Source of the DNA: Escherichia coli
Lineage (GTDB): Bacteria; Pseudomonadota; Gammaproteobacteria; Enterobacterales; Enterobacteriaceae
Assembly (NCBI RefSeq): GCF_051903065.1
Contig: NZ_CP178438.1
Length of the DNA stretch: 64,000 nucleotides
Reading direction: 5' to 3' (one strand)
Shown: in pieces, positions 734 through 20,165 of the stretch
Layout of the letters: every line of letters starts with the position of its first letter
Position numbering within the stretch: the stretch's first letter is position 1
Program-made: the position numbers and the translations under genes
Notes under the pieces: model-generated
Database searches by the model: none
The model's input: only the letters and a program-made list of their open reading frames with translations
Told to the model about the DNA's origin: nothing

Positions 734-833
734 TAAATTCCTAAAGTTGTTTTCTTGTTTGTTCAACGCTCTTAATTTTTTTCATTAACTGCTAGCATCC
801 GCTTATAACTGGATATAAATACAGGGAACGCGG

Positions 834-3800
834 ATGAAGAGTTATATCTATCAGGACGAAAAATCACATAAATTCTGGGCGGTGGAGCAGCAGGGAAACG
901 AGTTGCATATCAGCTGGGGAAAAGTTGGTACCCAAGGGCAAAGCCAGGTAAAAAATTTTGCTGATGTTGCAGCAGCGGAAAAAGCGAAACTGAAGCTTAT
1001 CGCGGAGAAAACGAAAAAAGGCTATGTGGAAAATGCTTCAGCAAACGTGCATATCCCCCCCATTACCAAAGCCACTCCTGAAGTTGAAACTTCCCCTGAG
1101 AGTAAAAACCAACGCCCCTGGCTGGCTGATGATGCGGTCATTCGGCTAACTGACGATATTAATCGATTTGCTTTTCCTCATCGCTCTCGCCCCAGAGAGA
1201 TCAATTATCTGCACAAAGATGGTCAAATATGGCAGCTCATCGCGAATAACACCAGAGCATATGATCCCGCCAACAATTACCGTTCTTATCCAGAAAACTG
1301 GCAGCAGGCTTTTGCTGAGTTACAAATGCGAGTTCAGGGTAATCAACAGACAGGGAGTGTGCAATCTGATGCAGCATTGCTCTGGAGTTTCTGGAACTCT
1401 TACTCTGCAGATGAACTGGTCGATGACTTAGTCATTCGCTGTGGTCTGGAAAGTGCCGTTGAAATTGCCCTTCTCGCTCTTCAACTTAGATATAAACCAG
1501 TAAAAGCCGACGTCACCACCATCATTCCCCCTGATCTCAAAGCAGAATCGCTACCGAACTGGCATCAACGTCTATGTCATCATCTTTCACTCGCTTCAGA
1601 AGATGAGTGGCAACGCTGTGTAGATAAGGTACTCGCGGCTATTCCCTCGCTATCCCCAGCACGGCAACCTTTTGCGGCGTTACTGATCCCTGAACGCCCG
1701 GATATCGCCAATGCTATGGCGCTACATTATGCAGATCAAAACGTTCCGGCGATGACCTGGTTAAGTATGATGGTAAGCGATGATGTTGCCCTGGCCATCC
1801 AGGAAAAATATGGTTTCCCACCGCTATATAATGATTTCCGCAAATATCTGGCTACGTTACTGGCAAATAATGGAATGCGTGGTGTAAGCCGGATTCTTCT
1901 CAAGCTACCTGTCGACTATCCCGTAAAATACACGGACCTTTTCACTCACATACACGCCAATGCTGAAAATCTTGTCAAATGGCTATGGAAAACGAATCAC
2001 CCGGATGCGATTCAAATTCTGATCCTCGGTGTAAATGGCAAGAAAAAGCACCTGGAATACTTAAGCAAAGCCTGCCAAAAACATCCCGCTGCGGCTATTG
2101 CCGCTTATGCTACTTTGCTGGCAATACATGAAAATAATGAGTGGCGTAAAGCGCTTGTCAAACTGATTACCGCCACGCCAGAGTTAGTATGCGAGGTCAT
2201 TCCCTGGGTTAATGCTAAGGCGGCAGGCATCTTATCTGAATGTCGTCCGCTGCCAATAGCTGAAGAATGTGAATATGCCACTGTGGATATGTTGCCGGAG
2301 CTGCTGGTCGCTCCACCGTGGGTAATAAATAAGAAAAAGAATGTCATACCCGTATTTGATTTACCGGTACTTCCCATTCCTGCCGTCACGGATATCACAC
2401 CAGGAATTACAGAGTTAATCAGTCATACTGACATATCCAGATTCAGTGAAATCGCGCAATATCAGGCATCACAGCAAACCTTATTTACCGACCTGCCACT
2501 AATTGAAAAAGAAAGCTGGGAGACATCTTTCATTCCTTTTACACCAGAACAACAAATTCTTTGGCAATTAGGTTTTAATGAATGGCTGCATTGCGAAAAT
2601 GACTTACATGAAAAAAAATATATACCGCAAAGCGCTGTTGATGCCTTGTTGCGCTTTGATTTTTCAGCACTAAAAGCTGAGTTTGCGAAATATCACAACA
2701 ATGCCAACAAAAGCTGGAATCTATCTGCGCTTTGTTACTTACCGGGACAACAGGCGATCTCATTTCTCAACCAAATAATCATTGAGGAGCGATATTCAGG
2801 TGAGAAAGAGATTCTGGCGGTTTTTGGTAGTACGGCCATTCCTGCGTTTATGACCTGCTTGCAACGAGATCATCAACGCCTGTGGATATTCACCCTTTTT
2901 ATTGGAGCCAGTGAACTAGCCTTACCAATGGCGCAGCGGTTACAGAAAAAAATAGCTTACAAGGATGCCGTTAATTGGCTGGCAAATAACCCGCGCCATG
3001 CCGCCGCCGGGCTACTGCCTTTGGCGCTGGGCAAACCGTGCCAAAATCGGGAATATGCCCGCCAGGCACTCCTCCTGCTAGTGAAATTAAACCAGCGAGA
3101 AACGATTGAGGAAATCGCCCAAGGATATAATCAACCTGATGTTTTAGCTGCGCTGGCAACATTATTTGATAGCGACCCACTGGAAGAATATCCTGCAAAA
3201 ATCGCCCCACTGCCCGGCTTTTATCAGTTCCCCTTATGGCGCAGACCTCGGCTTAAAAGTAACAACCTGCCTCTGCCAGATGACGCTATGCGCCACCTCG
3301 GCACAATGTTGAGCTTTCCACGCGACATTACCTCCTACGCTGGGCTGGCGATCATCAAAGAGACCTTCACCCGCGAATCACTGGCTGACTTTGGCTGGGA
3401 TCTCTACACGGCATGGACAGAAGCAGGCGCACCCGCAAAAGAGAACTGGGCATTTACCTCGCTGGGGATTCTAGGCAATGACGACACCGCGCGTAAACTA
3501 ACCCCGCTCATCCGCGCCTGGCCGGGTGAATCCCAGCATAAACGCGCGGTTTACGGGCTGGATGTGTTAGCCAGTATCGGTAGCGACATTGCGCTTATGT
3601 TGCTTAATGGCATTGCGCAAAAGATTAAATTCGTTGCATTACAGGAATATGCCAGCGACAGAATCAATATGGTCGCCGAAAATCGCGGACTGACAATGGC
3701 CGAACTGGAAGATCGCCTGGCACCGGATTTAGGGCTTGATAGCAGTGGCTCGCTAATATACTGGATTTCGGCCCCCGCAAATTCACCGTTGGTTTTGACG

Positions 3801-4636
3801 AAACCTTAAAACCTGTAGTGTGCGATGCAAACGGCAAAGTCCTGAAAGATTTACCTAAGACAAACCAGAGCGATGATAAAACACTGGCAACTGACGCAGT
3901 TAATCTCTTCAAACAGTTGAAAAAAGATGTTCGTGCTATCGCCAGCCAGCAAATTACCCGTCTGGAACAGGCTATGTGCCAGCGCAGACGCTGGACGGCA
4001 GAGCAGTTCCGCCTGTTTCTGGTGGAGCATCCGCTGGTACGTCACTTAACCCGACGGCTGTTATGGGGGGTTTATAACGATGAAAACGCCCTTATCATCT
4101 GTTTTCGCGTGGCAGAAGACAGCACTTACAGCGATGCGCAGGATGAGTTATTCACGCTGCCAGCAGGAAACATCGGTATACCGCATGTGCTGGAAATCCC
4201 CCCTGAATCCGCCGCTGCATTCAGGCAAATTTACGTTGATTACGAACTGCTTCCCCCTTTCCAACAGCTCGAACGTGGTAGTTACCACCTTGCTGATAAC
4301 GAACGTAATGTCCATGAATTGTCACGCTGGAACGGACGTCTCTGCCAGGCCGGACGCATTGTCGGGCTGGAACGCAGAGGCTGGCAACGTCTGGAAGAAA
4401 GCGGCAGCGTCTATGCGATGCGCAAATCTACCCCTTATGGTGCTCTCGAACTTGAAACAGAACCTTTTTCATTAATTTATGGCGAAACGGGGTATAGCGA
4501 CCTGCTGCCTGTCGAAAGCGTAAAAATCACCGCCCCTTATGATCGCTATGGTAAACAATCCTCACCCACTTTCTCCGTGCTCGACGACATCACCGCCAGC
4601 GAGCTGATTAACGACATTGAATCACTGTTTGATTAA
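834..4636 (+). pseudogene. molR: WGR-domain/DUF4132 protein (MolR-type), disrupted by a frameshift near 3750-3765
   Basis: ORFs 834..3809 (991 aa) and 3818..4636 (272 aa) together align colinearly with the intact 1249-aa paralog downstream; shifting frame at about 3757 restores the LDFG.RKFTV.FDETLKP motif seen in paralog 2; N-terminal WGR-like sequence MKSYIYQDEKSHKFWAVEQQ. Confidence 0.75.
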
Positions 4637-4648: not shown

Positions 4649-7600
4649 ATGAAAACCTATATTTATCAGGACGAAAAATCACATAAATTCTGGGCGGTGG
4701 AGCAGCAGAGAAACGAGCTGCATATCAACTGGGGCAAAGTCGGCACTAACGGGCAAAGTCAGGTAAAAAGCTTTGCTGATGCTGCGGCGGCAGAAAAAGC
4801 GGAACTGAAGCTGATTGCGGAGAAGGTGAAGAAGGGGTATGTGGAAGAATTATCTTCACCATCCCAACCCGCAATCAAAATAGAAACGATCGAAGTAGAT
4901 ACAGCTGACGTGGCAGAAACCAAAGTCGTATTTGACCAAAGTATGGTTGTTGAACCTGCTGAGACACCATGCCCGTGGCTGACAGATGATTCCACTATCC
5001 ATCTATCGGAGAAAAAGTCTCAGGGGGCCTTACCTTCCCGACGTTTTCCTGGGGATGCTGTAAGCGAACCACAAGACAGCCTCCTTATGAATTTAGGTCA
5101 GGATATTCATAATCTATCAGGAAAATTAACAACATACGATTTCAGTGCATGTTCTGCTAACTGGCAGCAGAATATCAATGAAGCTCTCGCTAATGGTCCA
5201 CTTTCTCCTGCTGCGTTGGCTGTACAGGTTGTTCTGGTTTCACGTAAATTCTGGGGCGAATGCCCTGAACTCATGGATGAAATTGTCTATGTCTACGGAC
5301 TAGAATTTGCCGTGGATATGTTTATTGCCATGCAATATATCTCGTTCGATTGCACTTATCACAGAACAAGCATACACATAACTTTTCAGCCATTATTAAT
5401 CCACGCACATTGTGTTACCCCCTTTGACGTTCGACTGCGTAAACATTTGGCTCTAGCAGAAGAAACTTTGTGGCAACGCTGTGTAGATAAATTCATTACA
5501 GCTTTGCCTGATATTCCTCCCGTTCAACAACCGATGGTAGCGCTAATGCTACCGGAACGCCCGGAGATTGCAGAAGAAGTCGCACGACGGTTACTGGAGC
5601 AGAAAAATGGCCACACTGTTGAATGGCTGAAACTTGTTGTACAAGAATCTTCCTTGCTCAAAGCACTGGAATCTTATTGCGCGTACGACCTTTTTAATGA
5701 CTATTACCATGGTTGCATCTGGAATGTCACCGTTTTGCAGGAGCAAGGGATTGCCGGAATCGCTCGCTTCGCCCCCTATGCTTATGCTGATCTTTGCGGA
5801 AGTATTCTCGCAGAGATCAATCACCCACAAGCATTAATGCTACTTATACGTGTGTCTGGCAAAACTAAACGCTGCCATGAACGAATGACTACGGCTTGCG
5901 CTGCGTTCCCACACGCAGCACTGGCAGCACTGGCGGAACTTCTAGTGCAAAAAGAAGAGAATAGTTGGCGCATTATGCTAATGACGATGCTTATCTCGCA
6001 ACCGACACTAGCAGAACAGGTCATTCCCTGGCTTTCGACACCCGCAGTTGCAGTGCTGAAATCATGCCAGCAACAACTGACACAGCCCTCAAACCATGCC
6101 TGCGTCGATCTACTGCCTGCCGTATTAGTCTCACCGCCCTGGCTTTCGAAAAAGAAAAAATCTGTAATGCCGGTATTGGATTTAACGCCATTACCGTTGG
6201 AGTCATGCTGTACATTGACCGAGACGGCAGAAAAAGAGATTCATGCAAGGCATCGCTGGCACGCACATCAAATAGACATCGGCCAAAAAGAGGATATTCA
6301 GAACTACCTGGCACGTCTGGGTTTCAATCGCTGGAATAATGGCCAGTATATGAAAGCGCCTGATGCTGCTATAGAGCTCTGGCAAAGGGGAGATTATTCC
6401 GCGCTGATCAGCGAATTTAAAACCTTCTGGCACTCCTATCAACGGGAATGGCAGCTTTACATGTTAGCCGCCCTGCCTATCGAAAAGACAGCGCAGGCGT
6501 GGAATGTCCTCAGTAAAGAGCCACACGTCGGTGTCGAGTTTGTCATGACGCACCTGCAACTCACTGGGTTACAGGGTTTTATTCACTCCTTTTCACGCTA
6601 CCCGCAAGAAGCTCTGCCTGTAGCACAATATTTTGCGGCTATCGAATTAGCGCCACTGATCGCCCGTGCCTTCAACAAACTCAAAACCCTACGACAAGAC
6701 GCCCGTAGCTGGCTGCTAAAATACCCGGAACACGCCATAACCGGCCTGCTGCCTTCGGCGCTCGGCAAAGCCGGTGAAGCACAGGATAACGCTCGCGCTG
6801 CCTTACGTATGCTTACCGAAAACGGTCATCAGCCATTACTGCAAGAAATCGCCCGGCGTTATAACCAGCCGGAAGTAACCGACGCGGTGAACGCTCTGCT
6901 TGCGCTCGATCCCTTAGATAATCACCCGACAAAAATCCCCACTCTTCCGGCCTTTTATCAGCCATCGCTCTGGACGCGCCCGGTATTAAATACAAACGCC
7001 CAATCACTGCCAGATAGCGCACTCCAGCACCTCGGTGAAATGCTCCGCTTCCCTCAGGAAGAGGCCCTGTATCCGGGATTATTGCAGGTGAAAGATGCCT
7101 GTACCGCCGACTCACTGGCTGAATTTGCCTGGGATCTGTTTACCGCCTGGTTGACTGCGGGCGCACCGTCGAAAGAGAGTTGGGCGTTCACTGCGTTAGG
7201 CGTTCTTGGTAACGATGACACCGCCCGCAAACTGACGCCATTAATACGCGCCTGGCCTGGTGAATCCCAGCATAAACGCGCCACCGTTGGGTTGGATATT
7301 CTCGCCGCTATCGGTAGTGATATCGCCCTGATGCAGCTTAACGGTATTGCCCAGAAACTGAAATTCAAAGCATTACAGGAGCGGGCAAAAGAAAAAATTG
7401 CCGACATTGCCGAAAGCCGCGAACTCACGGTGGCAGAGCTTGAAGATCGGTTAGCACCGGATCTCGGTCTGGATGATAACGGTTCGTTGCTGCTGGATTT
7501 CGGCTCACGCCAGTTCACCGTCAGCTTTGATGAAACCTTAAAACCGTTTGTGCGTGATGTTTCTGGCAGCCGTCTGAAAGACCTGCCCAAACCAAACAAA

Positions 7601-8398
7601 AGCGATGATGAATCACAGGCGAACGATGCTGTTAACCGCTACAAATTGCTGAAAAAAGATGCGCGTACCGTCGCCGCCCAGCAGGTAGCAAGGCTGGAAT
7701 CCGCCATGTGCCTGCGCCGCCGCTGGTCGCCGGAAAACTTCCAGCTCTTCCTGGTTGAGCATCCGTTGGTTCGCCACTTAACCCGCCGTCTGATTTGGGG
7801 TGTTTATAGCGCCGAAAACCAGCTACTGGCTTGCTTTCGCGTAGCGGAAGATAACAGCTACAGTACCGCTGACGATGATCTTTTCACCCTGCCGGAAGGC
7901 GATATCTCTATCGGCATTCCTCACGTTCTGGAAATATCACCAACGGATGCTGCCGCCTTTGGTCAGCTTTTTGCCGACTACGAACTGCTACCACCGTTCC
8001 GTCAGCTTGACCGTAACAGTTACGCCCTGACAGAAGCCGAGCGCAACGCCAGCGAACTGACCCGCTGGGCAGGCAGAAAATGCCCGAGCGGTCGGGTCAT
8101 GGGGCTGGCGAATAAAGGCTGGATAAAGGGCACCCCGCAGGATGGAGGCTGGATCGGCTGGATGATCAAACCTCTCGGTCGCTGGTCGTTAATCATGGAA
8201 ATCGATGAAGGTTTTGCGGTAGGCATGTCGCCAGCCGAACTGAGTGCCGAGCAGCTCTTAAGCAAGCTGTGGCTATGGGAAGGCAAAGCAGAAAGCTATG
8301 GCTGGGGGAGTAATTCAACACAGGAAGCGCAGCTCTCCGTACTCGATGCCATCACCGCCAGCGAGCTGATTAACGATATTGAAGCTCTGTTTGAATAA
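4649..8398 (+). CDS. WGR-domain/DUF4132 protein, intact paralog of molR (1249 aa)
   Basis: Tracked ORF; N-terminal about 65 aa nearly identical to copy 1; conserved C-terminal motif ASELINDIEALFE; start 12 bp after the end of copy 1. Confidence 0.8.
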   Translation: MKTYIYQDEKSHKFWAVEQQRNELHINWGKVGTNGQSQVKSFADAAAAEKAELKLIAEKVKKGYVEELSSPSQPAIKIETIEVDTADVAETKVVFDQSMVVEPAETPCPWLTDDSTIHLSEKKSQGALPSRRFPGDAVSEPQDSLLMNLGQDIHNLSGKLTTYDFSACSANWQQNINEALANGPLSPAALAVQVVLVSRKFWGECPELMDEIVYVYGLEFAVDMFIAMQYISFDCTYHRTSIHITFQPLLIHAHCVTPFDVRLRKHLALAEETLWQRCVDKFITALPDIPPVQQPMVALMLPERPEIAEEVARRLLEQKNGHTVEWLKLVVQESSLLKALESYCAYDLFNDYYHGCIWNVTVLQEQGIAGIARFAPYAYADLCGSILAEINHPQALMLLIRVSGKTKRCHERMTTACAAFPHAALAALAELLVQKEENSWRIMLMTMLISQPTLAEQVIPWLSTPAVAVLKSCQQQLTQPSNHACVDLLPAVLVSPPWLSKKKKSVMPVLDLTPLPLESCCTLTETAEKEIHARHRWHAHQIDIGQKEDIQNYLARLGFNRWNNGQYMKAPDAAIELWQRGDYSALISEFKTFWHSYQREWQLYMLAALPIEKTAQAWNVLSKEPHVGVEFVMTHLQLTGLQGFIHSFSRYPQEALPVAQYFAAIELAPLIARAFNKLKTLRQDARSWLLKYPEHAITGLLPSALGKAGEAQDNARAALRMLTENGHQPLLQEIARRYNQPEVTDAVNALLALDPLDNHPTKIPTLPAFYQPSLWTRPVLNTNAQSLPDSALQHLGEMLRFPQEEALYPGLLQVKDACTADSLAEFAWDLFTAWLTAGAPSKESWAFTALGVLGNDDTARKLTPLIRAWPGESQHKRATVGLDILAAIGSDIALMQLNGIAQKLKFKALQERAKEKIADIAESRELTVAELEDRLAPDLGLDDNGSLLLDFGSRQFTVSFDETLKPFVRDVSGSRLKDLPKPNKSDDESQANDAVNRYKLLKKDARTVAAQQVARLESAMCLRRRWSPENFQLFLVEHPLVRHLTRRLIWGVYSAENQLLACFRVAEDNSYSTADDDLFTLPEGDISIGIPHVLEISPTDAAAFGQLFADYELLPPFRQLDRNSYALTEAERNASELTRWAGRKCPSGRVMGLANKGWIKGTPQDGGWIGWMIKPLGRWSLIMEIDEGFAVGMSPAELSAEQLLSKLWLWEGKAESYGWGSNSTQEAQLSVLDAITASELINDIEALFE

Positions 8399-8407
8399 GG
8401 AAAGAGC

Positions 8408-11400
8408 ATGGACAAGGAATTACCGTGGCTGGCGGATAACGCCCAAGTGGAACTGAAATATAAAAAAGGCAAAACACCACTCAGCCATCGCAATTGGCCG
8501 GGCGAACCGGTGCCTGTTATCACTGAAAGCCTCATCCAGACACTGGGTGATGAATTGCTACAAAAAGCAGAGAAGAAAAAAAACATTGTCTGGCGTTATG
8601 AAAATTTTTCACTGGAGTGGCAGTCCGCCATTACGCAGGCCATCAACTTGATCGGCGAACACAAACCCTCAGTCCCGGCCCGCACAATGGCGGCGCTAGC
8701 CTGTATCGCGCAAAATGACAGCCAACAGTTGCTCGACGAAATCGTCCAACAAGAGGGGCTGGAATATGCGACTGAGGTGGTGATTGCACGCCAGTTTATT
8801 GCACGGTGTTATGAAAGTGATCCTCTGGTAGTCACATTGCAGTATCAGAACGAGGACTATGGCTATGGTTATCGCTCAGAAACCTATAACGAATTCGATC
8901 TCCGACTGCGTAAACACCTCTCTCTGGCAGAGGAAAGCTGCTGGCAGCGTTGCGCCGACAAACTCATTGCCGCACTGCCAGGAATAACCAAAGTTCGCCG
9001 TCCTTTTATTGCGCTGATCCTCCCGGAAAAGCCTGAAATAGCCAATGAACTCGCCAGTCTTGAAAGCTCCCGGTCAAGTCTCCATTCAAAGGAGTGGTTA
9101 AAGGTCGTTGCTACTGATAATACGGCGGTAAAAAAACTCGAACGATACTGGGGCCTGGACGTATTTAGCGATCGCGAAGCCAGCTACATGTCACAAAAAA
9201 ACCACTTCGGCTACGCGGCCTGCGCCGCCCTTTTGCGCGAACAAGGACTGGCAGCCATTCCGCGCCTCGCGATGTATGCCCATAAAGAAGATTGCGGCAG
9301 TCTGTTGGTACAAATTAACCATCCGCAGGTCATCCACACCTTGCTACTGGTGGCTGATAAAAACAAACCCAGCCTGCAACGTGTGGCTAAATACAGTAAA
9401 AACTTCCCCCACGCGACGCTCGCGGCACTGGCAGAACTGCTGGCGTTAAAAGAACCACCAGCCCGCCCTGGTTATCCAATCATCGAAGACAAAAAGCTGC
9501 CTGCCCAGCAAAAAGCACGCGATGAATACTGGCGTACGCTGTTACAAACGCTGATGGCATCGCAGCCACAACTGGTAGAAGAGGTGATGCAGTGGTTAAG
9601 TACTCAAGCCCGGGCAGTACTGAATAGTTATTTATTGGCACCGCCCAAACCGGTTATTGATGGCACCGATAACAGCAATCTGCCTGAAATCCTCGTTTCA
9701 CCACCGTGGCGTAGTAAGAAAAAAATGACAGCTCCACGTCTTGATTTGGCACCGCTCGAATTAACCCCGCAAGTTTACTGGCAACCAGGCGAACAAGAGA
9801 GGCTTGCCTCCACTGAGTCTGCCCGTTATTTCAGCACGGAATCTCTTGCGGAACGCATGGAACAAAAAAGTGGGCGAGTTGTATTACAGGAACTGGGTTT
9901 TGGGGATGATGTATGGCTGTTTCTGAATTATATACTCCCCGGAAAACTGGATGCTGCACGCAATTCACTCATTGTTCAGTGGCATTACTACCAGGGGCGG
10001 GTTGAAGAGATCCTGAATGGCTGGAACTCCCCGGAAGCACAATTAGCAGAACAGGCGCTCCGCAGCGGTCACATAGAAGCGTTAATTAACATATGGGAAA
10101 ATGACAACTACTCACGTTATCGTCCGGAAAAGAGTGTCTGGAACCTGTATTTATTGGCACAGTTGCCGCGTGAGATGGCTTTGACCTTCTGGCTGCGTAT
10201 CAATGAGAAAAAACATCTGTTCGCGGGTGAGGACTATTTTCTCAGTATCCTCGGATTGGATGCGCTACCAGGTCTGCTGTTGGCTTTTTTACATCGTCCA
10301 AAAGAAACATTTCCGTTAATTTTAAATTTTGGCGCAACAGAACTGGCCCTGCCCGTTGCCCGCGTCTGGCACCGTTTTGCGGGCCAGCGTAATCTGGCTC
10401 GCCAGTGGATTTTACAATGGCCGGAACATACGGCTACTGCACTTATCCCTCTTGTCTTTATCAAACCCAGCGATAATAGCGAAGCCGCATTACTTGCCCT
10501 GCGTTTACTGTACGAACAGGGACATGGCGAGTTGCTGCAAACCGTGGCAAACCGCTGGCAACGCGCTGATGTATGGCCTGCCCTGGAGCAGTTGCTTAAA
10601 CAGGGTCCAATGGACATTTACCCGGCACGCATTCCAAAAGCCCCTGATTTCTGGCATCCGCAAATGTGGTCCAGGCCGCGCCTTATCACTAATAATCAAC
10701 CTGTTACCGATGACGCTCTGGAAATTATCGGCGAAATGCTGCGCTTTACCCAGGGGGGACGTTTTTATAGCGGTCTGGAACAACTGAAAACGTTTTGCCA
10801 GCCACAAACGCTGGCCGCTTTTGCCTGGGATCTCTTCACTGCGTGGCAACAAGCTGGTGCCCCCGCAAAAGACAACTGGGCATTTCTGGCGTTAAGTCTC
10901 TTTGGTGACGAAAGCACGGCTCGGGATCTGACGACACAGATCCTCGCCTGGCCACAAGAAGGCAAATCTGCCCGTGCTGTCAGCGGCCTGAACATCCTTA
11001 CCCTGATGAATAATGATATGGCGCTGATGCAGCTGCATCATATATCGCAACGGGCTAAATCCCGCCCCTTACGTGATAACGCGGCGGAATTTCTTCAGGT
11101 GGTCGCAGAAAATCGCGGGCTAAGCCAGGAAGAGCTAGCGGACAGATTAGTCCCAATCCTGGGCCTTGATGATCCGCAGGCGTTGAGTTTTGATTTTGAT
11201 CCCCGGCAGTTTACCGTTCGCTTCGATGAAAACCTCAACCCGGTTATCTTTGATCAGCAAAACGTTCGCCAGAAAAGTGTTCCCCGGTTGCGTGCCGATG
11301 ACGATCAACTGAAAGCGCCCGAGGCACTGGCCCGACTAAAAGGGCTAAAAAAAGATGCTACTCAGGTGAGCAAAAACCTGCTCCCGCGTCTTGAAGCTGC

Positions 11401-12040
11401 CCTACGTACCACCCGACGCTGGTCGCTGGCAGATTTTCATTCTCTGTTTGTTAATCATCCCTTTACCCGCCTGGTTACCCAGCGATTAATATGGGGGGGT
11501 TATCCGGCAAATGAACCGCGTCGTTTACTCAACGCCTTTCGTGTGGCCGCAGAGGGGGAGTTCTGCAATGCGCAGGATGAGCCCATTGACCTTCCTGCGG
11601 ATGCTCTGATTGGCATTGCCCACCCGTTAGAAATGACAGCAGAAATGCGCAGTGAATTTGCACAGCTTTTTGCCGATTACGAAATTATGCCGCCTTTTCG
11701 CCAGTTGTCGCGCCGCACGGTGCTGCTCACACCTGACGAGTCAACCAGTAACAGCCTGACTCGCTGGGAAGGTAAATCCGCTACCGTTGGGCAACTTATG
11801 GGAATGCGATACAAAGGCTGGGAATCAGGCTATGAGGACGCATTTGTCTATGACCTGGGTGAGTACCGGCTGGTCCTTAAGTTTTCACCCGGTTTTAACC
11901 ACTACAATGTTGATAGCAAAGCGCTAATGAGCTTCCGTTCTCTTCGAGTGTACCGTGACAATAAATCCGTCACTTTTGCCGAACTTGATGTGTTTGATTT
12001 GAGAGAGGCGTTAAGCGCACCTGACGTCATTTTCCATTAA
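8408..12040 (+). CDS. yehI: DUF4132 protein, third paralog, lacking the N-terminal WGR module (1210 aa)
   Basis: Tracked ORF; begins at the PWLADNA motif that is about residue 95 of the other two paralogs; start 9 bp after the stop of paralog 2; shares the conserved central and C-terminal blocks (HPLVRHLTRRLIWG-like, DLFTAW..AGAP). Confidence 0.8.
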   Translation: MDKELPWLADNAQVELKYKKGKTPLSHRNWPGEPVPVITESLIQTLGDELLQKAEKKKNIVWRYENFSLEWQSAITQAINLIGEHKPSVPARTMAALACIAQNDSQQLLDEIVQQEGLEYATEVVIARQFIARCYESDPLVVTLQYQNEDYGYGYRSETYNEFDLRLRKHLSLAEESCWQRCADKLIAALPGITKVRRPFIALILPEKPEIANELASLESSRSSLHSKEWLKVVATDNTAVKKLERYWGLDVFSDREASYMSQKNHFGYAACAALLREQGLAAIPRLAMYAHKEDCGSLLVQINHPQVIHTLLLVADKNKPSLQRVAKYSKNFPHATLAALAELLALKEPPARPGYPIIEDKKLPAQQKARDEYWRTLLQTLMASQPQLVEEVMQWLSTQARAVLNSYLLAPPKPVIDGTDNSNLPEILVSPPWRSKKKMTAPRLDLAPLELTPQVYWQPGEQERLASTESARYFSTESLAERMEQKSGRVVLQELGFGDDVWLFLNYILPGKLDAARNSLIVQWHYYQGRVEEILNGWNSPEAQLAEQALRSGHIEALINIWENDNYSRYRPEKSVWNLYLLAQLPREMALTFWLRINEKKHLFAGEDYFLSILGLDALPGLLLAFLHRPKETFPLILNFGATELALPVARVWHRFAGQRNLARQWILQWPEHTATALIPLVFIKPSDNSEAALLALRLLYEQGHGELLQTVANRWQRADVWPALEQLLKQGPMDIYPARIPKAPDFWHPQMWSRPRLITNNQPVTDDALEIIGEMLRFTQGGRFYSGLEQLKTFCQPQTLAAFAWDLFTAWQQAGAPAKDNWAFLALSLFGDESTARDLTTQILAWPQEGKSARAVSGLNILTLMNNDMALMQLHHISQRAKSRPLRDNAAEFLQVVAENRGLSQEELADRLVPILGLDDPQALSFDFDPRQFTVRFDENLNPVIFDQQNVRQKSVPRLRADDDQLKAPEALARLKGLKKDATQVSKNLLPRLEAALRTTRRWSLADFHSLFVNHPFTRLVTQRLIWGGYPANEPRRLLNAFRVAAEGEFCNAQDEPIDLPADALIGIAHPLEMTAEMRSEFAQLFADYEIMPPFRQLSRRTVLLTPDESTSNSLTRWEGKSATVGQLMGMRYKGWESGYEDAFVYDLGEYRLVLKFSPGFNHYNVDSKALMSFRSLRVYRDNKSVTFAELDVFDLREALSAPDVIFH

Positions 12041-12100: not shown

Positions 12101-12418
12101 ATGATCGTGCAAAAAGAGCTGGTTGCTATTTACGATTATGAGGTCCCTGTACCTGAAGATCCGTTTTCCTTCAGACTTGAGATCCATAAATGCTCTGAAT
12201 TATTTACAGGTTCCGTCTATCGACGGGAGCGATTCCGGCTACATCCAACATTTCATCAACGTGATCGAGAAGATGCTGACCCGCTAATAAATGATGCGTT
12301 GATTTATATAAGAGATGAGTGTATTGATGAGCGGAAATTACGAGGTAAATCACCTGAAACTGTAATAGCAATTTTTAATCGTGAACTACAGAATATATTC
12401 AACCAAGAAATAGAATAA
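12101..12418 (+). CDS. yehK: Small uncharacterised protein (105 aa)
   Basis: Tracked ORF in an AT-rich segment; position between yehI and yehL. Confidence 0.6.
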   Translation: MIVQKELVAIYDYEVPVPEDPFSFRLEIHKCSELFTGSVYRRERFRLHPTFHQRDREDADPLINDALIYIRDECIDERKLRGKSPETVIAIFNRELQNIFNQEIE

Positions 12419-12849: not shown

Positions 12850-12855
12850 TTATTC

Positions 12856-13434: not shown

Positions 13435-13457
13435 CGGGGTCCAGCCGTGGTTATAAT
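13429..13457 (+). promoter_or_regulatory. Predicted sigma70 promoter for the second antitoxin sRNA
   Basis: -35 TTGCAA (13429-13434), 17-bp spacer, -10 TATAAT (13452-13457). Confidence 0.6.
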
Positions 13458-13463
13458 TCGTTC

Positions 13464-13546
13464 GTTGGAACACGATGTTGCACAGGCTGTGGTGTTAGGC
13501 CTGAAAATAGTAAATAAAAGAACCTGCCTCACCAGCAGGTTTTTTT
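13464..13546 (+). ncRNA. orzP: Antitoxin small RNA (OrzP-like), about 80 nt
   Basis: Promoter plus terminator; 13464-13483 (GTTGGAACACGATGTTGCAC) is complementary to the UTR segment encoded at 13298-13317 with one mismatch. Confidence 0.7.
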
Positions 13547-13547
13547 A
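13522..13547 (+). terminator. Intrinsic terminator of the second antitoxin sRNA
   Basis: Stem ACCTGC / GCAGGT followed by TTTTTTT. Confidence 0.75.
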
Positions 13548-13657
13548 TTTACTATGATCTGCTTTCCAGATATTTTTTGCTCAAACAACTAATGCGCCAA
13601 ACATTTATTGCGCGTAAAATATCGTTTATTTCATTAATACATTTCAGGGATGAATAT

Positions 13658-14746
13658 ATGTCACCGCAGAATAATCATCTGCAGCGTCCGCCTGCTGCTG
13701 TGTTATACGCCGATGAACTGGCAAAATTAAAACAAAATGATACCGCACCTTGCCCGCCCGGTTGGCAGTTAAGTTTGCCTGCGGCCCGTGCTTTTATCCT
13801 TGGCGATAGCGCGCAAAATATTAGCCGTAAAGTGGTGATTAGTCCCTCCGCTGTCGAACGTATGTTAGTCACTCTTGCCACCGGACGCGGTTTGATGTTG
13901 GTGGGGGAACCTGGCACCGCAAAATCTCTCCTGTCTGAATTACTGGCAACCGCTATTAGCGGCGATGCCGGGTTAACCATCCAGGGCGGTGCATCTACTA
14001 CCGAAGATCAAATCAAGTACGGCTGGAACTACGCCCTGCTTATCAATCATGGTCCATCAACGGAAGCGCTGGTCCCTGCCCCGCTTTACCAGGGAATGCG
14101 CGACGGCAAAATCGTCCGTTTTGAAGAGATAACGCGTACACCGCTGGAAGTGCAAGACTGTCTGTTAGGTATGCTTTCTGACAGGGTGATGACGGTGCCG
14201 GAACTCACTGGTGAAGCCAGTCAGCTCTATGCGCGAGAAGGCTTTAATATTATTGCCACTGCCAATACCCGCGATCGCGGCGTCAATGAAATGAGTGCTG
14301 CGCTAAAGCGTCGCTTCGATTTTGAAACTGTCTTTCCGATTATGGATTTCGCCCAGGAGCTGGAGCTTGTCGCCAGTGCTTCGGCGCGTTTGCTGGCCCA
14401 TAGCGGTATTCCGCATAAAGTGCCTGACGCGGTACTGGAGTTACTGGTCCGCACTTTCCGCGATCTGCGTGCCAACGGCGAAAAGAAAACGTCAATGGAT
14501 ACACTAACAGCGATTATGTCCACCGCTGAAGCCGTGAACGTGGCCCACGCTGTGGGCGTCCGCGCCTGGTTTTTGGCGAATCGCGCAGGTGAGCCAGCCG
14601 ATCTGGTGGACTGTATTGCCGGAACCATCGTTAAAGATAACGAAGAAGATCGCGCTCGTCTGCGCCGTTACTTCGAACAGCGTGTCGCCACACATAAAGA
14701 AGCTCACTGGCAGGCTTATTATCAAGCCCGCCACCGCCTGCCGTGA
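13658..14746 (+). CDS. yehL: MoxR-family AAA+ ATPase (362 aa)
   Basis: Walker A GEPGTAKS; start chosen at MSPQNNH within tracked ORF 13577..14746. Confidence 0.85.
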   Translation: MSPQNNHLQRPPAAVLYADELAKLKQNDTAPCPPGWQLSLPAARAFILGDSAQNISRKVVISPSAVERMLVTLATGRGLMLVGEPGTAKSLLSELLATAISGDAGLTIQGGASTTEDQIKYGWNYALLINHGPSTEALVPAPLYQGMRDGKIVRFEEITRTPLEVQDCLLGMLSDRVMTVPELTGEASQLYAREGFNIIATANTRDRGVNEMSAALKRRFDFETVFPIMDFAQELELVASASARLLAHSGIPHKVPDAVLELLVRTFRDLRANGEKKTSMDTLTAIMSTAEAVNVAHAVGVRAWFLANRAGEPADLVDCIAGTIVKDNEEDRARLRRYFEQRVATHKEAHWQAYYQARHRLP

Positions 14747-14756
14747 GGAAAGATGC

Positions 14757-17036
14757 ATGAGCGAGCCGTTAATTGTCGGCATCCGGCATCATAGTCCGGC
14801 CTGCGCCCGGCTGGTGAAATCGTTAATCGAAAGCCAGCGGCCACGATACGTGTTGATTGAAGGCCCGGCTGATTTTAATGACCGGGTAGACGAACTGTTT
14901 TTAGCCCACCAGCTTCCGGTAGCTATTTACAGTTATTGCCAGTATCAGGACGGTGCAGCCCCCGGGCGTGGTGCCTGGACGCCATTTGCTGAATTTTCGC
15001 CGGAGTGGCAGGCGCTACAAGCCGCTCGTCGTATTCAGGCACAAACTTACTTCATCGATTTGCCTTGCTGGGCACAGAGTGAAGAAGAGGACGATTCGCC
15101 TGATACGCAAGAGGAAAGCCAGACCTTGCTGCTGCGTGCCACCCGCATGGATAACAGCGATACCCTGTGGGATCACTTGTTCGAAGATGAAAGCCAGCAA
15201 ACTGCATTACCCTCTGCACTGGCGCACTATTTTGCCCAACTGCGGGGCGATTTCCCCGGCGATGCACTCAATCGTCAGCGCGAAGCCTTTATGGCTCGCT
15301 GGATTGGATGGGCGGTGCAGCAAAATAATGGCGACGTGTTAGTCGTCTGCGGTGGCTGGCACGCTCCGGCACTGGCAAAAATGTGGCGCGAATGCCCGCA
15401 GGACATTAACAAGCCAGAATTGCCCTCGCTGGCAGATGCCGTTACAGGTTGTTATCTCACACCCTACAGTGAAAAGCGCCTTGATGTGCTGGCAGGATAC
15501 CTTTCAGGAATGCCTGCCCCGGTCTGGCAAAGCTGGTGCTGGCAGTGGGGCTTACAGCAGGCGGGAGAACAACTGCTAAAAACGGTTCTTACCCGTTTGC
15601 GCCAACACCACTTGCCTGCTTCGACCGCGGATATGGCTGCCGCTCATCTGCATGCGATGGCGCTGGCACAGTTGCGCGGACATAAACTACCGTTACGCAC
15701 TGACTGGCTGGATGCCATAGCAGGCTCGCTGATTAAAGAAGCCCTGAACGCGCCGTTGCCGTGGAGCTATCGCGGAGTTATTCATCCCGACACCGATCCG
15801 ATTCTGCTAACGTTGATAGACACATTAGCGGGTGACGGATTCGGTAAACTTGCCCCTTCTACGCCACAACCGCCTCTGCCAAAAGATGTCACCTGCGAAC
15901 TGGAACGTACCGCAATCTCTCTTCCGGCGGAGCTTACCTTAAATCGCTTTAACCCCAATGGACTAGCGCAAAGTCAGGTGTTACATCGGCTGGCAATACT
16001 GGAGATCCCAGGGATTGTACGCCAGCAGGGAAGCACACTGACACTTGCAGGCAACGGTGAAGAACGCTGGAAATTAACCCGCCCGCTTAGCCAGCATGCG
16101 GCATTGATTGAGGCCGCCTGCTTTGGTGCCACACTCCAGGAAGCCGCACGCCATAAATTAGAAGCCGATATGCTGGACGCGGGTGGAATCGGCAGTATCA
16201 CCACATGTCTTAGCCAGGCGGCGTTAGCGGGTCTGGCGTCCTTCAGTCAACAATTACTGGAGCAACTCACATTATTAATCGCCCAGGAAAATCAATTTGC
16301 CGAAATGGGGCAGGCGCTGGAAGTCCTTTATGCCTTATGGCGGTTAGATGAAATCAGCGGTATGCAAGGCGCGCAGATATTGCAGACGACGTTATGTGCG
16401 GCTATCGATCGCACGCTCTGGCTGTGTGAATCCGACGGCAAACCGGATGAAAAGGAGTTTCACGCTCACCTGCATAGCTGGCAGGCGCTTTGCCATATCC
16501 TGCGCGATCTACATAGCGGCGTTAATTTACCCGGCGTTTCTCTTTCTGCGGCGGTGGCCTTACTGGAACGCCGCAGTCAGGCAATTCATGTCCCGGCGCT
16601 GGATCGCGGCGCGGCTCTTGGCGCACTGATGCGTCTGGAACATCCCAACGCCAGTGCCGAAGCGGCGCTGACAATGCTGGCGCAGTTATCCCCGGCACAA
16701 TCCGGCGAGGCGCTGCACGGTTTGCTGGCGCTCGCCCGTCATCAACTGGCCTGCCAGCCGGCATTTATCGCCGGTTTCAGCAGTCATTTAAATCAACTGA
16801 ATGACGACGATTTTATTAACGCCCTGCCCGATTTACGCGCGGCGATGGCCTGGCTACCACCACGAGAACGCGGGACGCTGGCGCATCAGGTGCTTGAGCA
16901 TTATCAACTGGCGCAACTTCCCGTTTCGGCGCTGCAAATGCCGTTGCATTGTCCACCACAAGCCATTGCACATCATCAACAACTCGAACAGCAGGCACTG
17001 GCATCGCTGCAAAACTGGGGAGTTTTCCATGTCTGA
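14757..17036 (+). CDS. yehM: Uncharacterised protein of the yehLMPQ operon (759 aa)
   Basis: Start MSEPLIVG 10 bp after the yehL stop; no domain I can name from sequence. Confidence 0.8.
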   Translation: MSEPLIVGIRHHSPACARLVKSLIESQRPRYVLIEGPADFNDRVDELFLAHQLPVAIYSYCQYQDGAAPGRGAWTPFAEFSPEWQALQAARRIQAQTYFIDLPCWAQSEEEDDSPDTQEESQTLLLRATRMDNSDTLWDHLFEDESQQTALPSALAHYFAQLRGDFPGDALNRQREAFMARWIGWAVQQNNGDVLVVCGGWHAPALAKMWRECPQDINKPELPSLADAVTGCYLTPYSEKRLDVLAGYLSGMPAPVWQSWCWQWGLQQAGEQLLKTVLTRLRQHHLPASTADMAAAHLHAMALAQLRGHKLPLRTDWLDAIAGSLIKEALNAPLPWSYRGVIHPDTDPILLTLIDTLAGDGFGKLAPSTPQPPLPKDVTCELERTAISLPAELTLNRFNPNGLAQSQVLHRLAILEIPGIVRQQGSTLTLAGNGEERWKLTRPLSQHAALIEAACFGATLQEAARHKLEADMLDAGGIGSITTCLSQAALAGLASFSQQLLEQLTLLIAQENQFAEMGQALEVLYALWRLDEISGMQGAQILQTTLCAAIDRTLWLCESDGKPDEKEFHAHLHSWQALCHILRDLHSGVNLPGVSLSAAVALLERRSQAIHVPALDRGAALGALMRLEHPNASAEAALTMLAQLSPAQSGEALHGLLALARHQLACQPAFIAGFSSHLNQLNDDDFINALPDLRAAMAWLPPRERGTLAHQVLEHYQLAQLPVSALQMPLHCPPQAIAHHQQLEQQALASLQNWGVFHV

Positions 17037-18165
17037 ACTGAACGATCTTCTGACCAACCGTGAGCTACAACGCTGGCGATTAATTCTTGGCGAAGCGGCA
17101 GAAACGACGCTTTGTGGGCTGGATGACAACGCCCGGCAGATAGACCACGCGCTGGAGTGGCTGTATGGGCGCGATCCTGAACGGCTCCAGCGTGGTGAAC
17201 GTTCCGGTGGATTAGGTAGCTCAAATCTCACCACCCCTGAGTGGATCAACAGTATTCACACGCTGTTTCCGCAACAGGTGATTGAGCGGCTGGAAAGCGA
17301 TGCCGTACTGCGCTACGGCATTGAAGATGTGGTGACGAATCTCGACGTGCTGGAACGTATGCAGCCTTCTGAAAGCCTGCTACGCGCCGTTTTGCACACC
17401 AAACATCTGATGAACCCCGAAGTACTGGCTGCCGCCCGCCGGATAGTGCGCCAGGTTGTTGAAGAAATTATGGCTCGACTGGCAAAGGAAGTTCGTCAGG
17501 CTTTTTCTGGTGTCCGCGATCGCCGTCGCCGCTCATCTATTCCACTGGCGCGAAACTTTGATTTCAAAAGTACTCTTCGCGCCAATCTGCAACACTGGCA
17601 CCCGCAACACGGCAAGTTGTATATCGAATCCCCCCGCTTTAACAGCCGCATTAAACGCCACAGTGAACAATGGCAACTGGTCTTACTGGTTGATCAAAGC
17701 GGATCGATGGTGGACTCGGTGATCCACTCTGCGGTGATGGCGGCCTGTTTGTGGCAGTTACCCGGCATTCGTACCCATCTGGTGGCGTTTGACACCAGCG
17801 TGGTTGATCTCACGGCAGACGTTGCCGATCCGGTAGAGTTATTAATGAAAGTGCAATTAGGCGGCGGAACCAATATCGCCAGTGCCGTGGAATATAGTCG
17901 GCAACTTATTGAACAACCAGCGAAAAGCGTCATTATCCTCGTGAGCGATTTTTACGAAGGGGGTTCATCATCATTACTGACGCATCAGGTGAAAAAGTGT
18001 GTCCAGAGCGGCATCAAAGTGCTGGGATTGGCAGCGCTCGATAGCACAGCTACGCCTTGCTATGACCGCGATACGACCCAGGCGCTGGTTAATGTCGGCG
18101 CACAAATAGCCGCCATGACGCCGGGCGAGCTGGCATCATGGCTTGCGGAGAATCTTCAGTCATGA
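17029..18165 (+). CDS. yehP: von Willebrand factor A (VWA) domain protein (378 aa)
   Basis: MIDAS-type motif DQSGSM; start MSELNDLL overlaps the yehM stop by 8 bp. Confidence 0.85.
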   Translation: MSELNDLLTNRELQRWRLILGEAAETTLCGLDDNARQIDHALEWLYGRDPERLQRGERSGGLGSSNLTTPEWINSIHTLFPQQVIERLESDAVLRYGIEDVVTNLDVLERMQPSESLLRAVLHTKHLMNPEVLAAARRIVRQVVEEIMARLAKEVRQAFSGVRDRRRRSSIPLARNFDFKSTLRANLQHWHPQHGKLYIESPRFNSRIKRHSEQWQLVLLVDQSGSMVDSVIHSAVMAACLWQLPGIRTHLVAFDTSVVDLTADVADPVELLMKVQLGGGTNIASAVEYSRQLIEQPAKSVIILVSDFYEGGSSSLLTHQVKKCVQSGIKVLGLAALDSTATPCYDRDTTQALVNVGAQIAAMTPGELASWLAENLQS

Positions 18166-20165
18166 ATTCACTACGTCCGGAATTATTAGAACTGACACCG
18201 CAGGCACTGACGGCGTTAAGCAATGCCGGTTTTGTTAAGCGCAGCCTTAAGGAACTGGAAAATGGCAACGTCCCGGAAATCAGCCATGAGAACGGCGCTT
18301 TAATCGCCACCTTCAGTGACGGTGTCCGTACCCAGCTGGCGAACGGTCAGGCACTGAAAGAGGCTCAGTGCACCTGCGGGGCTAGCGGCATGTGCCGTCA
18401 TCGCGTGATGCTGGTGTTAAGTTATCAGCGACTTTGTGCCACCACCCGGCCCACGGAAAAAGAAGAAGAGTGGCAGCCTGCAATCTGGCTGGAAGAACTG
18501 GCTACCCTGCCCGATGCCACCCGCAAACGTGCACAGGTGCTGGTCGCTAAAGGCATCACCATTGAGTTGTTCTGTGCGCCTGGCGAAATTCCCTCAGCCC
18601 GCTTACCGATGAGCGATGTGCGTTTTTATTCCCGCAGCAGTATTCGTTTCGCCCGCTGTGATTGTATTGAAGGCACACTTTGCGAACATGTCGTACTGGC
18701 TGTGCAGGCCTTCGTCGAGGCCAAAACTCAGCAAGCGGAATTTACTCATTTAATCTGGCAGATGCGCAGCGAACACGTCACATCATCTGACGACCCGTTT
18801 GCCAGCGAAGAAGGCAACGCGTGTCGTCAATATGTTCAGCAATTAAGCCAGGCATTATGGCTTGGCGGCATCAGCCAGCCGCTTATTCACTACGAGGCCG
18901 CTTTCAGCCGCGCGCAGCAAGCGGCGGAACGCTGCAACTGGCGCTGGGTGAGTGAATCGCTACGGCAACTGCGCGCCAGCGTTGATGCCTTCCACGCCCG
19001 CGCCAGCCACTATCATGCAGGAGAATGCTTACGTCAGCTTGCGGCATTAAACAGTCGATTAAATTGCGCACAAGAGATGGCCCGGCGCGACAGTGTTGGT
19101 GAAGTTCCTCCTGTGCCGTGGCGCACGGTCGTTGGCTCTGGCATTGCCGGAGAAGCAAAGCTTGATCATCTGCGGCTGGTGTCTTTAGGTATGCGTTGCT
19201 GGCAGGATATTGAGCATTATGGTTTACGCATCTGGTTTACCGATCCCGACACCGGCAGTATTTTGCACCTTTCGCGCAGTTGGCCGCGAAGTGAACAGGA
19301 AAACTCACCGGCAGCTACGCGTCGGCTGTTTAGTTTTCAGGCTGGCGCACTGGCGGGTGGGCAAATTGTTTCACAAGCAGCAAAACGCAGTGCCGATGGC
19401 GAGCTGCTGTTAGCTACCCGCAACCGCTTAAGCAGCGTTGTGCCGCTGTCGCCTGATGCCTGGCGAATGTTGAGCGCGCCGTTACGCCAGCCGGGCATTG
19501 TGGCTTTGCGGGAATATTTACGCCAGCGTCCCCCCTCCTGCATACGGCCTCTTAATCAGGTCGATAACTTATTTATTCTGCCGGTCGCTGAGTGTATTTC
19601 GCTCGGTTGGGATAGCAGCCGCCAGACGCTGGATGCGCAGGTAATCAGCGGCGAAGGTGAAGATAATCTGCTGACGTTATCACTGCCAGCCTCAGCCAGC
19701 GCGCCTTATGCCGTTGAACGCATGGCGGCGCTTTTGCAACAAACAGACGACCCCGTGTGTCTGGTTTCTGGCTTTGTCAGTTTTGTTGATGGGCAATTGA
19801 CACTGGAACCACAGGTAATGATGACAAAGACTCGTGCCTGGGCGCTGGACGCAGAAACTGCGCCTGTGGTGGCATCACTACCTTCTGCCAGCGTTCTGCC
19901 TGTGCCGTCTACTGCTCATCAGTTGCTGATGCGCTGCCAGGCATTACTTATTCAACTGCTCCATAACGGCTGGCGCTATCAGGAACAGAGTGCTATTGGT
20001 CAGGCAGAGTTGCTGGCGAATGACCTCACCGCGGTGGGTTTTTATCGGCTGGCACATGTATTGGGACAATTTCGTAATACAGAAAGCGAGGCACGGGTAG
20101 AAGCAATGAATAACGGTGTTTTGCTGTGCGAACAATTATTCCCCATGCTTCAGCAACAAGGATGA
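18162..20165 (+). CDS. yehQ: SWIM zinc-finger protein
   Basis: Two CxCx5CxH motifs (CTCGASGMCRH and CDCIEGTLCEH); ATG overlaps the yehP TGA (ATGA); exact start uncertain. Confidence 0.75.
   Translation: MNSLRPELLELTPQALTALSNAGFVKRSLKELENGNVPEISHENGALIATFSDGVRTQLANGQALKEAQCTCGASGMCRHRVMLVLSYQRLCATTRPTEKEEEWQPAIWLEELATLPDATRKRAQVLVAKGITIELFCAPGEIPSARLPMSDVRFYSRSSIRFARCDCIEGTLCEHVVLAVQAFVEAKTQQAEFTHLIWQMRSEHVTSSDDPFASEEGNACRQYVQQLSQALWLGGISQPLIHYEAAFSRAQQAAERCNWRWVSESLRQLRASVDAFHARASHYHAGECLRQLAALNSRLNCAQEMARRDSVGEVPPVPWRTVVGSGIAGEAKLDHLRLVSLGMRCWQDIEHYGLRIWFTDPDTGSILHLSRSWPRSEQENSPAATRRLFSFQAGALAGGQIVSQAAKRSADGELLLATRNRLSSVVPLSPDAWRMLSAPLRQPGIVALREYLRQRPPSCIRPLNQVDNLFILPVAECISLGWDSSRQTLDAQVISGEGEDNLLTLSLPASASAPYAVERMAALLQQTDDPVCLVSGFVSFVDGQLTLEPQVMMTKTRAWALDAETAPVVASLPSASVLPVPSTAHQLLMRCQALLIQLLHNGWRYQEQSAIGQAELLANDLTAVGFYRLAHVLGQFRNTESEARVEAMNNGVLLCEQLFPMLQQQG

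Follow-up and report, generated by a model that had tools for sequence, protein, structure and literature searches.

The window analysed here is a 64,000-nucleotide stretch of the Escherichia coli contig NZ_CP178438.1 (assembly GCF_051903065.1), a chromosome segment running from metG to the yoh genes. Our subject is the operon yehLMPQ in this window, together with the array of DUF4132 paralogs upstream of it. With yehH and yehI from that array, yehLMPQ is among the largest core E. coli gene blocks without an assigned function; E. coli has only two MoxR ATPases, of which YehL is one. The operon belongs to a five-component cassette found across several bacterial phyla, and either the cassette or its DUF4132 arm is wired to the local damage regulator in three unrelated systems (LexA, PafBC-type and IrrE/DdrO).

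The yehLMPQ genes and their products

The four genes lie on the same strand, with coordinates and junctions as given by the first-pass annotation, which had been made from this sequence without database searches: a 10-bp gap, an 8-bp overlap and a 4-bp ATGA overlap separate or join successive genes. The letters L, M, P, Q and D denote the cassette components throughout.

13658..14746, + strand: yehL, MoxR-class AAA+ ATPase (AAA_5); component L; homolog of DdrV
14757..17036, + strand: yehM, DUF5682 protein; component M; homolog of DdrW
17029..18165, + strand: yehP, CoxE-type VWA protein with a complete metal-ion-dependent adhesion site (MIDAS) and a conserved N-terminal helical region; component P; homolog of DdrX
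18162..20165, + strand: yehQ, SWIM zinc-finger protein; component Q

RefSeq labels the products as an ATP-binding protein (yehL), a DUF5682 protein (yehM), a VWA protein (yehP) and a SWIM zinc-finger protein (yehQ), and the 6.5-kb interval is 100% identical to that of strain 23CRST027.

YehL is a MoxR-type AAA+ protein, as had been proposed from its Walker A motif GEPGTAKS: Pfam AAA_5 matches residues 79–220 (E = 2.6e-34), and the motifs GEPGTAKS, VRFEEITR, IATANTRDRG and ALKRRF are at least 95% conserved among 81 homologs, so that the Walker A, Walker B, sensor-1 and arginine-finger motifs are all present. The YehL subfamily, one of seven recognised MoxR subfamilies, is named after this protein (PMC3893208), and the naming dates to 2006 (cited in PMC3893208). 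The gene of its VWA partner, yehP, lies two genes 3' of yehL, a linkage found in essentially all loci not cut by a contig end. The VWA domain and MIDAS motif predicted for YehP were recovered by Pfam VWA_CoxE (E = 1.5e-71; DQSGSM...GGGT...DFYEG), and DQSGSM, GGGT and DFyEG are conserved across 79 homologs. Searches against NCBIfam returned sub-threshold generic matches only (GvpN, MadB and McrB for YehL; cobaltochelatase for YehP). Three metagenomic or genomic representatives of ~1120–1180 residues (P0174, P0231 and P0258) contain a full DUF5682 and a full VWA_CoxE in one predicted polypeptide. These predicted fusions suggest a physical interaction between M and P; they could also be gene-calling artefacts across overlapping genes.

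For YehM, in which no domain had been named, only DUF5682 matches in Pfam (E = 6.5e-99), a large family with 2276 representatives at 50% identity (E ≤ 0.001). The protein comprises a TIKI/TraB/ChaN/EreA-like putative hydrolase domain (residues ~1–240), an alpha/beta middle part and a C-terminal helical repeat. Comparison of predicted structures placed the N-terminal domain in the alpha/beta fold of the TIKI/TraB/ChaN/EreA superfamily, with the haem-binding protein ChaN as its top structural neighbour and the immunity-triggering effector HopBA1 among the others. Sequence likeness to this superfamily (TIKI, TraB-PrgY, GumN, ChaN and erythromycin esterases) is almost undetectable, the Pfam family Cofac_haem_bdg (ChaN, Tiki superfamily) giving a weak match in 1 of 46 YehM members (E = 5.5e-3). 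Unlike members of the superfamily, the YehM domain is fused to a helical scaffold of ~500 residues and stands in a MoxR–VWA context. Sequence searches for relatives of solved structure returned none for YehM (searched as a profile), YehQ or YehI. The top Foldseek match of the YehM model, which was non-significant, was the human SWIM protein ZSWIM8 in a CUL3 complex (E = 0.011, TM-score ~0.1); this is probably just helical-repeat similarity, and curious since the partner of YehM is a SWIM protein.

Across the 46 YehM sequences, an N-terminal cluster of residues is invariant, comprising R10 and H11, E35, S81, P82 and E83, D101, R163, R175 and E176, and G199, G200 and H202, with G8 invariant as well. 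H11, E35 and H202 are retained in the Deinococcus, Bacillus and Hymenobacter homologs, as are the other acidic residues and the arginines of the set. The catalytic signature of the TIKI/TraB/ChaN/EreA superfamily reads GxxH...E...GxxH. The pairs G8/H11 and G199/H202, with E35 between them, fit this signature at the level of the sequence pattern rather than by a structural superposition of residues. Because the invariant N-terminal residues are retained in distant homologs, they mark a candidate conserved active site.

YehQ contains the two CxCx5CxH SWIM motifs described for it in the first-pass annotation, CTCGASGMCRH and CDCIEGTLCEH, of which only the first is conserved in the family. Its residues C70, C72, C78 and H80 are invariant in 38 homologs, while the second finger (C167...H176) is a feature of the E. 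coli lineage. Against Pfam SWIM, the two fingers reach borderline scores (E = 0.0013 and 0.21). The remainder of YehQ consists of bundles of helices and a pair of beta-rich domains that give weak matches to OB-like folds. The CxCxnCxH finger is shared with eukaryotic SWIM proteins (SWS1/Shu2, ZSWIM8), and the small WGR module of ~65 residues that heads MolR and YehH is shared with PARP-type WGR proteins. In eukaryotes, WGR and SWIM domains occur in DNA-break sensing and recombination-mediator proteins. Unlike those proteins, MolR, YehH and YehQ have no PARP catalytic domain and no Rad51-paralog partner, and their sequences are otherwise unrelated.

A cassette of five components

The fifth component, D, is a giant DUF4132 protein, represented in the window by an array of three paralogs with one promoter-proximal site:

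809..824, + strand: LexA (SOS) box CTGGATATAAATACAG, 10 bp before the start codon of the first DUF4132 paralog
834..4636, + strand: molR-like WGR and DUF4132 paralog, a frameshifted pseudogene (RefSeq annotation, frame check and WGR alignment)
4649..8398, + strand: yehH-type paralog of 1249 aa, with an N-terminal WGR (WGK variant), a helical body and a C-terminal DUF4132; component D
8408..12040, + strand: yehI, 1210 aa, DUF4132 paralog without WGR (Pfam, pairwise BLASTP and its N-terminus)

A WGR module had been credited to the N-terminus of all three paralogs. Both alignment to homologs with a Pfam WGR annotation and a local profile bear this out for the molR-like gene and YehH; YehI, which starts after the position of the WGR and linker, lacks it, and its only Pfam match is DUF4132 (residues 954–1138). 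Several actinobacterial DUF4132 paralogs likewise gave no match to the WGR profile, which was built from proteobacterial sequences. YehH and YehI are 37% identical (pairwise BLASTP) and therefore stem from an old duplication. The molR-like gene carries a single frameshift, being open in frame 0 to position 3806 and in the +2 frame from 3743, so the gene directly behind the LexA box is a pseudogene here, as in K-12.

To survey the cassette, a YehM profile was used; at least 583 matched stretches were confirmed, and 80 loci from species-representative genomes plus 9 others were taken for comparison. Homologs of all the E. coli proteins were located at each locus, and architecture was tallied over 84 loci. 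At about 90 loci in Pseudomonadota, Myxococcota, Actinomycetota and Bacillota, with one to five DUF4132 paralogs, the set proved to comprise MoxR AAA+ ATPase, DUF5682, CoxE-type VWA and SWIM proteins together with the DUF4132 giant, which usually bears a WGR head. The proposed association of WGR/DUF4132 genes with yehLMPQ extends beyond E. coli, with a DUF4132 gene adjacent in ~73 of the 84 loci. The order DLMPQ was counted 35 times, DDLMPQ 10 times and DDDLMPQ 17 times, exceptions being mostly at contig ends, and independent gene calls with Pfam labels gave the same architecture. Gamma- and Betaproteobacteria follow the order D(1–5)-L-M-P-Q, as do Myxococcota-type deltaproteobacteria and many Actinomycetota; Bacillus mycoides shows the same arrangement as E. 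coli. L-M-D-P-Q was found on a Sinorhizobium plasmid, and L-M-P-Q-D in Burkholderia and one actinobacterium. All-against-all clustering of 3667 flanking open reading frames (ORFs) yielded no cluster in more than 10 loci and no recurrent sixth partner or client; the clusters obtained reflect synteny within genera, and flanks differ between lineages. The five genes have thus been inherited together across at least four phyla despite changing order and flanks.

Individual neighbours stand out at single loci. In the actinobacterial assembly GCA_037572395.1 (locus L089, 1–17608), the L-M-P-Q-D cassette adjoins genes for Pup ligase, Pup and the proteasomal ATPase, and a PDDEXK_1 nuclease gene follows the cassette; in Hymenobacter (locus L087), a PDDEXK nuclease gene abuts the VWA gene. 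Clustering across the 80 loci showed no recurrent link to PDDEXK or Pup–proteasome genes, so that these are isolated cases.

An AAA_5 MoxR ATPase gene beside a gene for a VWA protein with an intact MIDAS is also the arrangement of CbbQ–CbbO, NorQ–NorD, CoxD–CoxE and RavA–ViaA. This likeness raises the alternative that the cassette is a chaperone for metal or cofactor insertion, like CoxD/CoxE (Mo–Cu CO dehydrogenase), NorQ/NorD (FeB) or CbbQ/CbbO (Rubisco), in which a metal or tetrapyrrole would be the ligand of YehM's ChaN-like domain and molR would owe its old name to a genuine connection with molybdenum. Among VWA proteins YehP falls into the CoxE branch, YehL is of an ATPase class known for such roles, the haem-binding ChaN is the closest structural neighbour of YehM, and molR was named after a molybdate-utilisation phenotype (cited in PMC7824862, PMC8533742). 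However, known MoxR–VWA maturases adjoin their client, or the client enzyme is known, whereas no candidate client gene accompanies the cassette in about 90 loci, and the chaperone reading is weakened for this reason. The cassette further differs from these pairs in having three more large obligatory partners (DUF5682, SWIM and DUF4132/WGR) and a regulation that points toward DNA damage; such wiring to damage regulons in three lineages would be unexpected of a chaperone. No role in cofactor insertion is known for WGR or SWIM modules, and in Deinococcus the molybdenum-cofactor genes did not respond along with those for the DUF4132 and WGR proteins (PMC8533742). We consider a role in cofactor insertion quite improbable.

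Deinococcota and Bacteroidota have a variant built on the same L-M-P core. In Deinococcus this is the operon ddrTUVWX, whose DdrV, DdrW and DdrX match YehL, YehM and YehP over their full length (E = 1.9e-74, 3.7e-37 and 3.3e-64, respectively), with the signature residues of YehM retained in DdrW. The copy in D. taeanensis reads SWIM, DUF5691, AAA, a 78-aa ORF, DUF5682 and VWA. Both types thus combine MoxR AAA+ ATPase, DUF5682, CoxE-type VWA and SWIM genes in one operon, but in ddrTUVWX the places of YehQ and the DUF4132 giant are taken by a short SWIM protein (DdrT) and a DUF5691 protein (DdrU). Searches with the DUF4132 and YehQ profiles picked up neither DdrT nor DdrU and revealed no relationship beyond the SWIM motif. 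Hymenobacter carries a Deinococcus-type variant in which SWIM and DUF5691 are fused. Judged by gene content and homology, the E. coli type is a sister architecture to ddrTUVWX and not the same operon type.

Wiring to damage regulators

The link to DNA damage comes from three regulatory systems. In the E. coli region, CTGGATATAAATACAG is the sole CTG-N10-CAG site with an AT-rich spacer in promoter position, and molR, whose SOS box is known, is listed in the LexA regulon (PMC6590174). BglJ–RcsB is a further activator of the molR promoter.

In actinobacteria, PafBC drives a LexA-independent damage response through the RecA-NDp promoter, whose consensus was reportedly given by Gamulin et al. in 2004 as TGTCRGTG-N8-TAnnnT. 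Exact matches to this consensus occur six times in the 84 loci searched on both strands, all on the coding strand and shortly before the first cassette gene. At a tolerance of up to one mismatch, 8 matches fall in 24 kb of upstream sequence versus 24 in 3.2 Mb elsewhere. Twelve actinobacterial RecA-NDp-type sites lie 1–127 nt before the first cassette ORF, one of them directly before the L gene at a locus without a D gene. We rely on the exact-consensus count and the one-mismatch enrichment rather than on a position weight matrix scan, which is partly circular in that the matrix was trained on the sites found and the null windows include true sites. A recurrent CTGGGAAGTGGAGCAG was considered as an operator and rejected, being coding sequence (FWEVEQ of the WGR domain).

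In Deinococcus, TTACGCCAGAAACATAA lies ~25 nt upstream of ddrT on the D. taeanensis plasmid (locus L091, 4700–4760). It fits the half-sites of the radiation/desiccation response motif (RDRM), TTAYG-N7-CRTAA, and is consistent with the published RDRM before ddrT homologs. The five-gene operon ddrTUVWX is preceded by an RDRM and induced more than 5–10-fold by radiation in an IrrE/DdrO-dependent manner (PMC5552922; PMC6300522). It was named in 2017 (Blanchard et al.) and is among the most strongly radiation-induced transcripts (PMC5552922). D. radiodurans is without ddrTUVWX; there, the DUF4132 gene DRA0166 and the WGR gene DR2173 are DdrO targets induced by mitomycin C (PMC8533742). The radiation induction of ddrTUVWX is experimental, whereas none is known for E. 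coli yehLMPQ.

In a further reading, the WGR/DUF4132 proteins would be DNA-binding transcription factors and the MoxR–VWA–SWIM part would only control their activity or turnover. MolR-like proteins are classed as WGR-domain transcription factors in comparative genomics (PMC7824862), and operon control is tight (BglJ–RcsB, LexA and H-NS). By contrast, proteins of 1200–1400 aa in one to five tandem copies are atypical of transcription factors; YehI, and apparently several actinobacterial paralogs as judged with the proteobacterial WGR profile, have no WGR head; and the invariant candidate catalytic residues of YehM argue for chemistry rather than regulation only. A purely regulatory module is therefore very improbable in our view.

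A proposed damage-response machine weighed against a conflict system

With moderate confidence, we read yehLMPQ as the engine of a conserved five-component DNA-damage response machine, a damage-induced remodelling and hydrolase complex that would act at DNA. The first-pass annotation had proposed a stress or conflict system. Its stress half gains a definite direction, DNA damage, from the LexA box at molR, the RecA-NDp motifs and the homology to ddrVWX; its conflict half finds no support in the defence-database search, the rarity in phages and plasmids, the core distribution and the lack of defence neighbours, set out below.

In the conflict reading, a MoxR–VWA thresholding switch would free YehM as a hydrolase effector when WGR/SWIM sensors detect foreign or degraded DNA, and control by damage regulons would possibly couple the system to prophage induction. 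The tandem, copy-number-variable and faster-evolving DUF4132 paralogs resemble diversifying sensors, and the cassette is self-contained, has lineage-specific flanks and sometimes resides on plasmids, including one conjugative plasmid. YehL has a weak Pfam match (E = 0.0021) to bpMoxR, the MoxR of ternary conflict systems; HopBA1 is a structural neighbour of YehM; and PDDEXK nuclease genes adjoin the cassette at two loci. The cassette indeed resembles the vWA–MoxR–VMAP ternary systems (Kaur, Burroughs, Iyer, Aravind 2020) in joining MoxR and vWA genes with large partners in a multi-gene cassette, but differs from them in having no VMAP and no recognised effector-associated or death-type domain, and in its chromosomal, core distribution. 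The conserved set contains no recognisable nuclease, TIR, caspase-like or pore-forming effector domain. YehL, YehM, YehP, YehQ, YehI and YehK match none of the 5027 PADLOC-DB 2.0 models (E ≤ 0.01), and clustering of the flanking ORFs revealed no recurrent defence genes nearby. A YehM homolog was found in a single doubtful record among 50,697 phage records and in 38–44 of 72,556 plasmid records, most of which are megaplasmids or wrongly labelled chromosomes. In E. coli the operon is core and holds a fixed position: it is present in 5354 of 5426 complete genomes at 95–99% identity, which contradicts the earlier description of the locus as a variable island. A conflict role is doubtful on this evidence, and the cassette probably serves the response to DNA damage and not defence against phages.

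For the cassette proteins we infer DNA binding, complex formation, ATPase-driven remodelling and hydrolysis, and their domain types (WGR, SWIM and OB-like folds) would point to nucleic-acid sensing. The damage-response machine could work as follows. After damage, the proteins would assemble; the WGR head of the DUF4132 protein, together with the SWIM finger and OB-like domains of YehQ, would place the complex on broken, gapped or protein-occupied DNA or nucleoprotein. The MIDAS of YehP would grip an acidic residue of the target and couple the target to a YehL hexamer, as in CbbO–CbbQ and NorD–NorQ, and ATP hydrolysis by YehL would remodel or extract it. The TIKI/TraB/EreA-like domain of YehM may then perform a hydrolytic step, for example cleaving a trapped or cross-linked protein or removing an adduct. 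The tandem, faster-evolving DUF4132 paralogs may serve as alternative adaptors.

A more specific version holds that the cassette is a phylum-spanning repair or tolerance machine, in which MoxR and MIDAS proteins extract a DNA-bound or cross-linked protein, or another blocking lesion complex, recognised by WGR/DUF4132 and SWIM/OB-like modules and cleaved by YehM, with the DUF4132 paralogs as interchangeable adaptors. Under this cross-link extraction reading, which we regard as unlikely in its full detail, the cassette would be a bacterial functional analogue of p97 with SPRTN/Wss1 in DNA–protein cross-link repair.

Several observations weigh against a damage-response role. The LexA box of E. 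coli serves the DUF4132 array, which in this strain opens with a pseudogene; yehLMPQ lies 1.2 kb downstream of the array, behind a toxin–antitoxin spacer; and there is no CTG-N10-CAG site between yehK and yehL. Silencing by H-NS/StpA has been reported, with yehL and yehM up-regulated in hns/stpA mutants and intergenic H-NS binding (PMC3686432). Elsewhere, about half of the assessable actinobacterial loci are without a good RecA-NDp match, and scans before the cassette in about 80 other loci for CTGT-N8-ACAG, CTG-N10-CAG, the actinobacterial GAAC-N4-GTTC and a Xanthomonadales pattern yielded no convincing LexA-type box. Because these scans found no LexA-type box in the other proteobacterial loci, damage control is lineage-specific and recurrent rather than universal. 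Induction is also no proof of a repair role, because damage regulons hold toxins, mobile elements and restriction enzymes as well. The open-access literature searched contains no functional study and reports no DNA binding, ATPase or hydrolase activity or mutant phenotype.

The object itself is not new, because its genes are annotated, the YehL subfamily has had its name since 2006 and ddrTUVWX since 2017. Searches of the available literature found nothing on the five-component definition, the equivalence of yehLMP and ddrVWX, the PafBC-type promoters or the TIKI/TraB-like domain of DUF5682, and 'DUF5682' occurs in none of the papers listed by a full-text search. The E. coli y-genes, the LexA-regulated 'molR' and Deinococcus ddrTUVWX form three literatures unconnected in the papers searchable. 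Linking them, together with the predicted PafBC control, gives a testable hypothesis of a damage-induced AAA+/MIDAS/hydrolase complex in tractable organisms. If the repair reading is true, the cassette would extend bacterial DNA-damage machinery by a new class and MoxR–VWA motors by a new client type; if the conflict reading is true, it would be a defence system unusual in being so ancient and so firmly core.

The remaining features lie between the array and yehL:

12101..12418, + strand: yehK, 105 aa, outside the conserved cassette
12528-12617, - strand: zorO-type toxin peptide, 29 aa, in the spacer 12419-13657
13136-13225, - strand: zorO-type toxin peptide, 29 aa, in the same spacer

YehK gave no phmmer match in the 80 foreign loci scanned and no family match in PADLOC or NCBIfam; by these searches it is restricted to the E. 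coli locus and not a cassette member. The G+C content is 54.9% in yehLMPQ, 51.6% in the window, 49.8% in the paralog array and 43.2% in the toxin–antitoxin spacer. The base composition of yehLMPQ and its reported hns/stpA response may reflect an old horizontal acquisition.

The variable parts of the region are the paralog array and the yehK–yehL spacer. Compared with 5421 E. coli genomes, the array (834–12040) reached at least 80% coverage in only 927, with identity mostly 90–95%; most genomes cover ~56% of the three-copy query, that is, about two copies. In sublineage L1a of ST131, the blaCTX-M-15 transposon TnMB1860 is inserted in the DUF4132 array region (PMC9334617). In the spacer, the tandem toxin–antitoxin duplication noted earlier is present as two zorO-type ORFs encoding the peptides MDTLTQKL[I/T]VLIAVLELLVALLRLIDLLK, in repeat units of ~500 bp that are 89% identical and each close with a terminator-like stem and T-run. 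The zorO-orzO/zorP-orzP locus is known from O157:H7 and absent from MG1655 (Fozo et al. 2010), and the spacer between the DUF4132 array and yehLMPQ measures 1.2 kb in O157:H7 versus 0.3 kb in MG1655.

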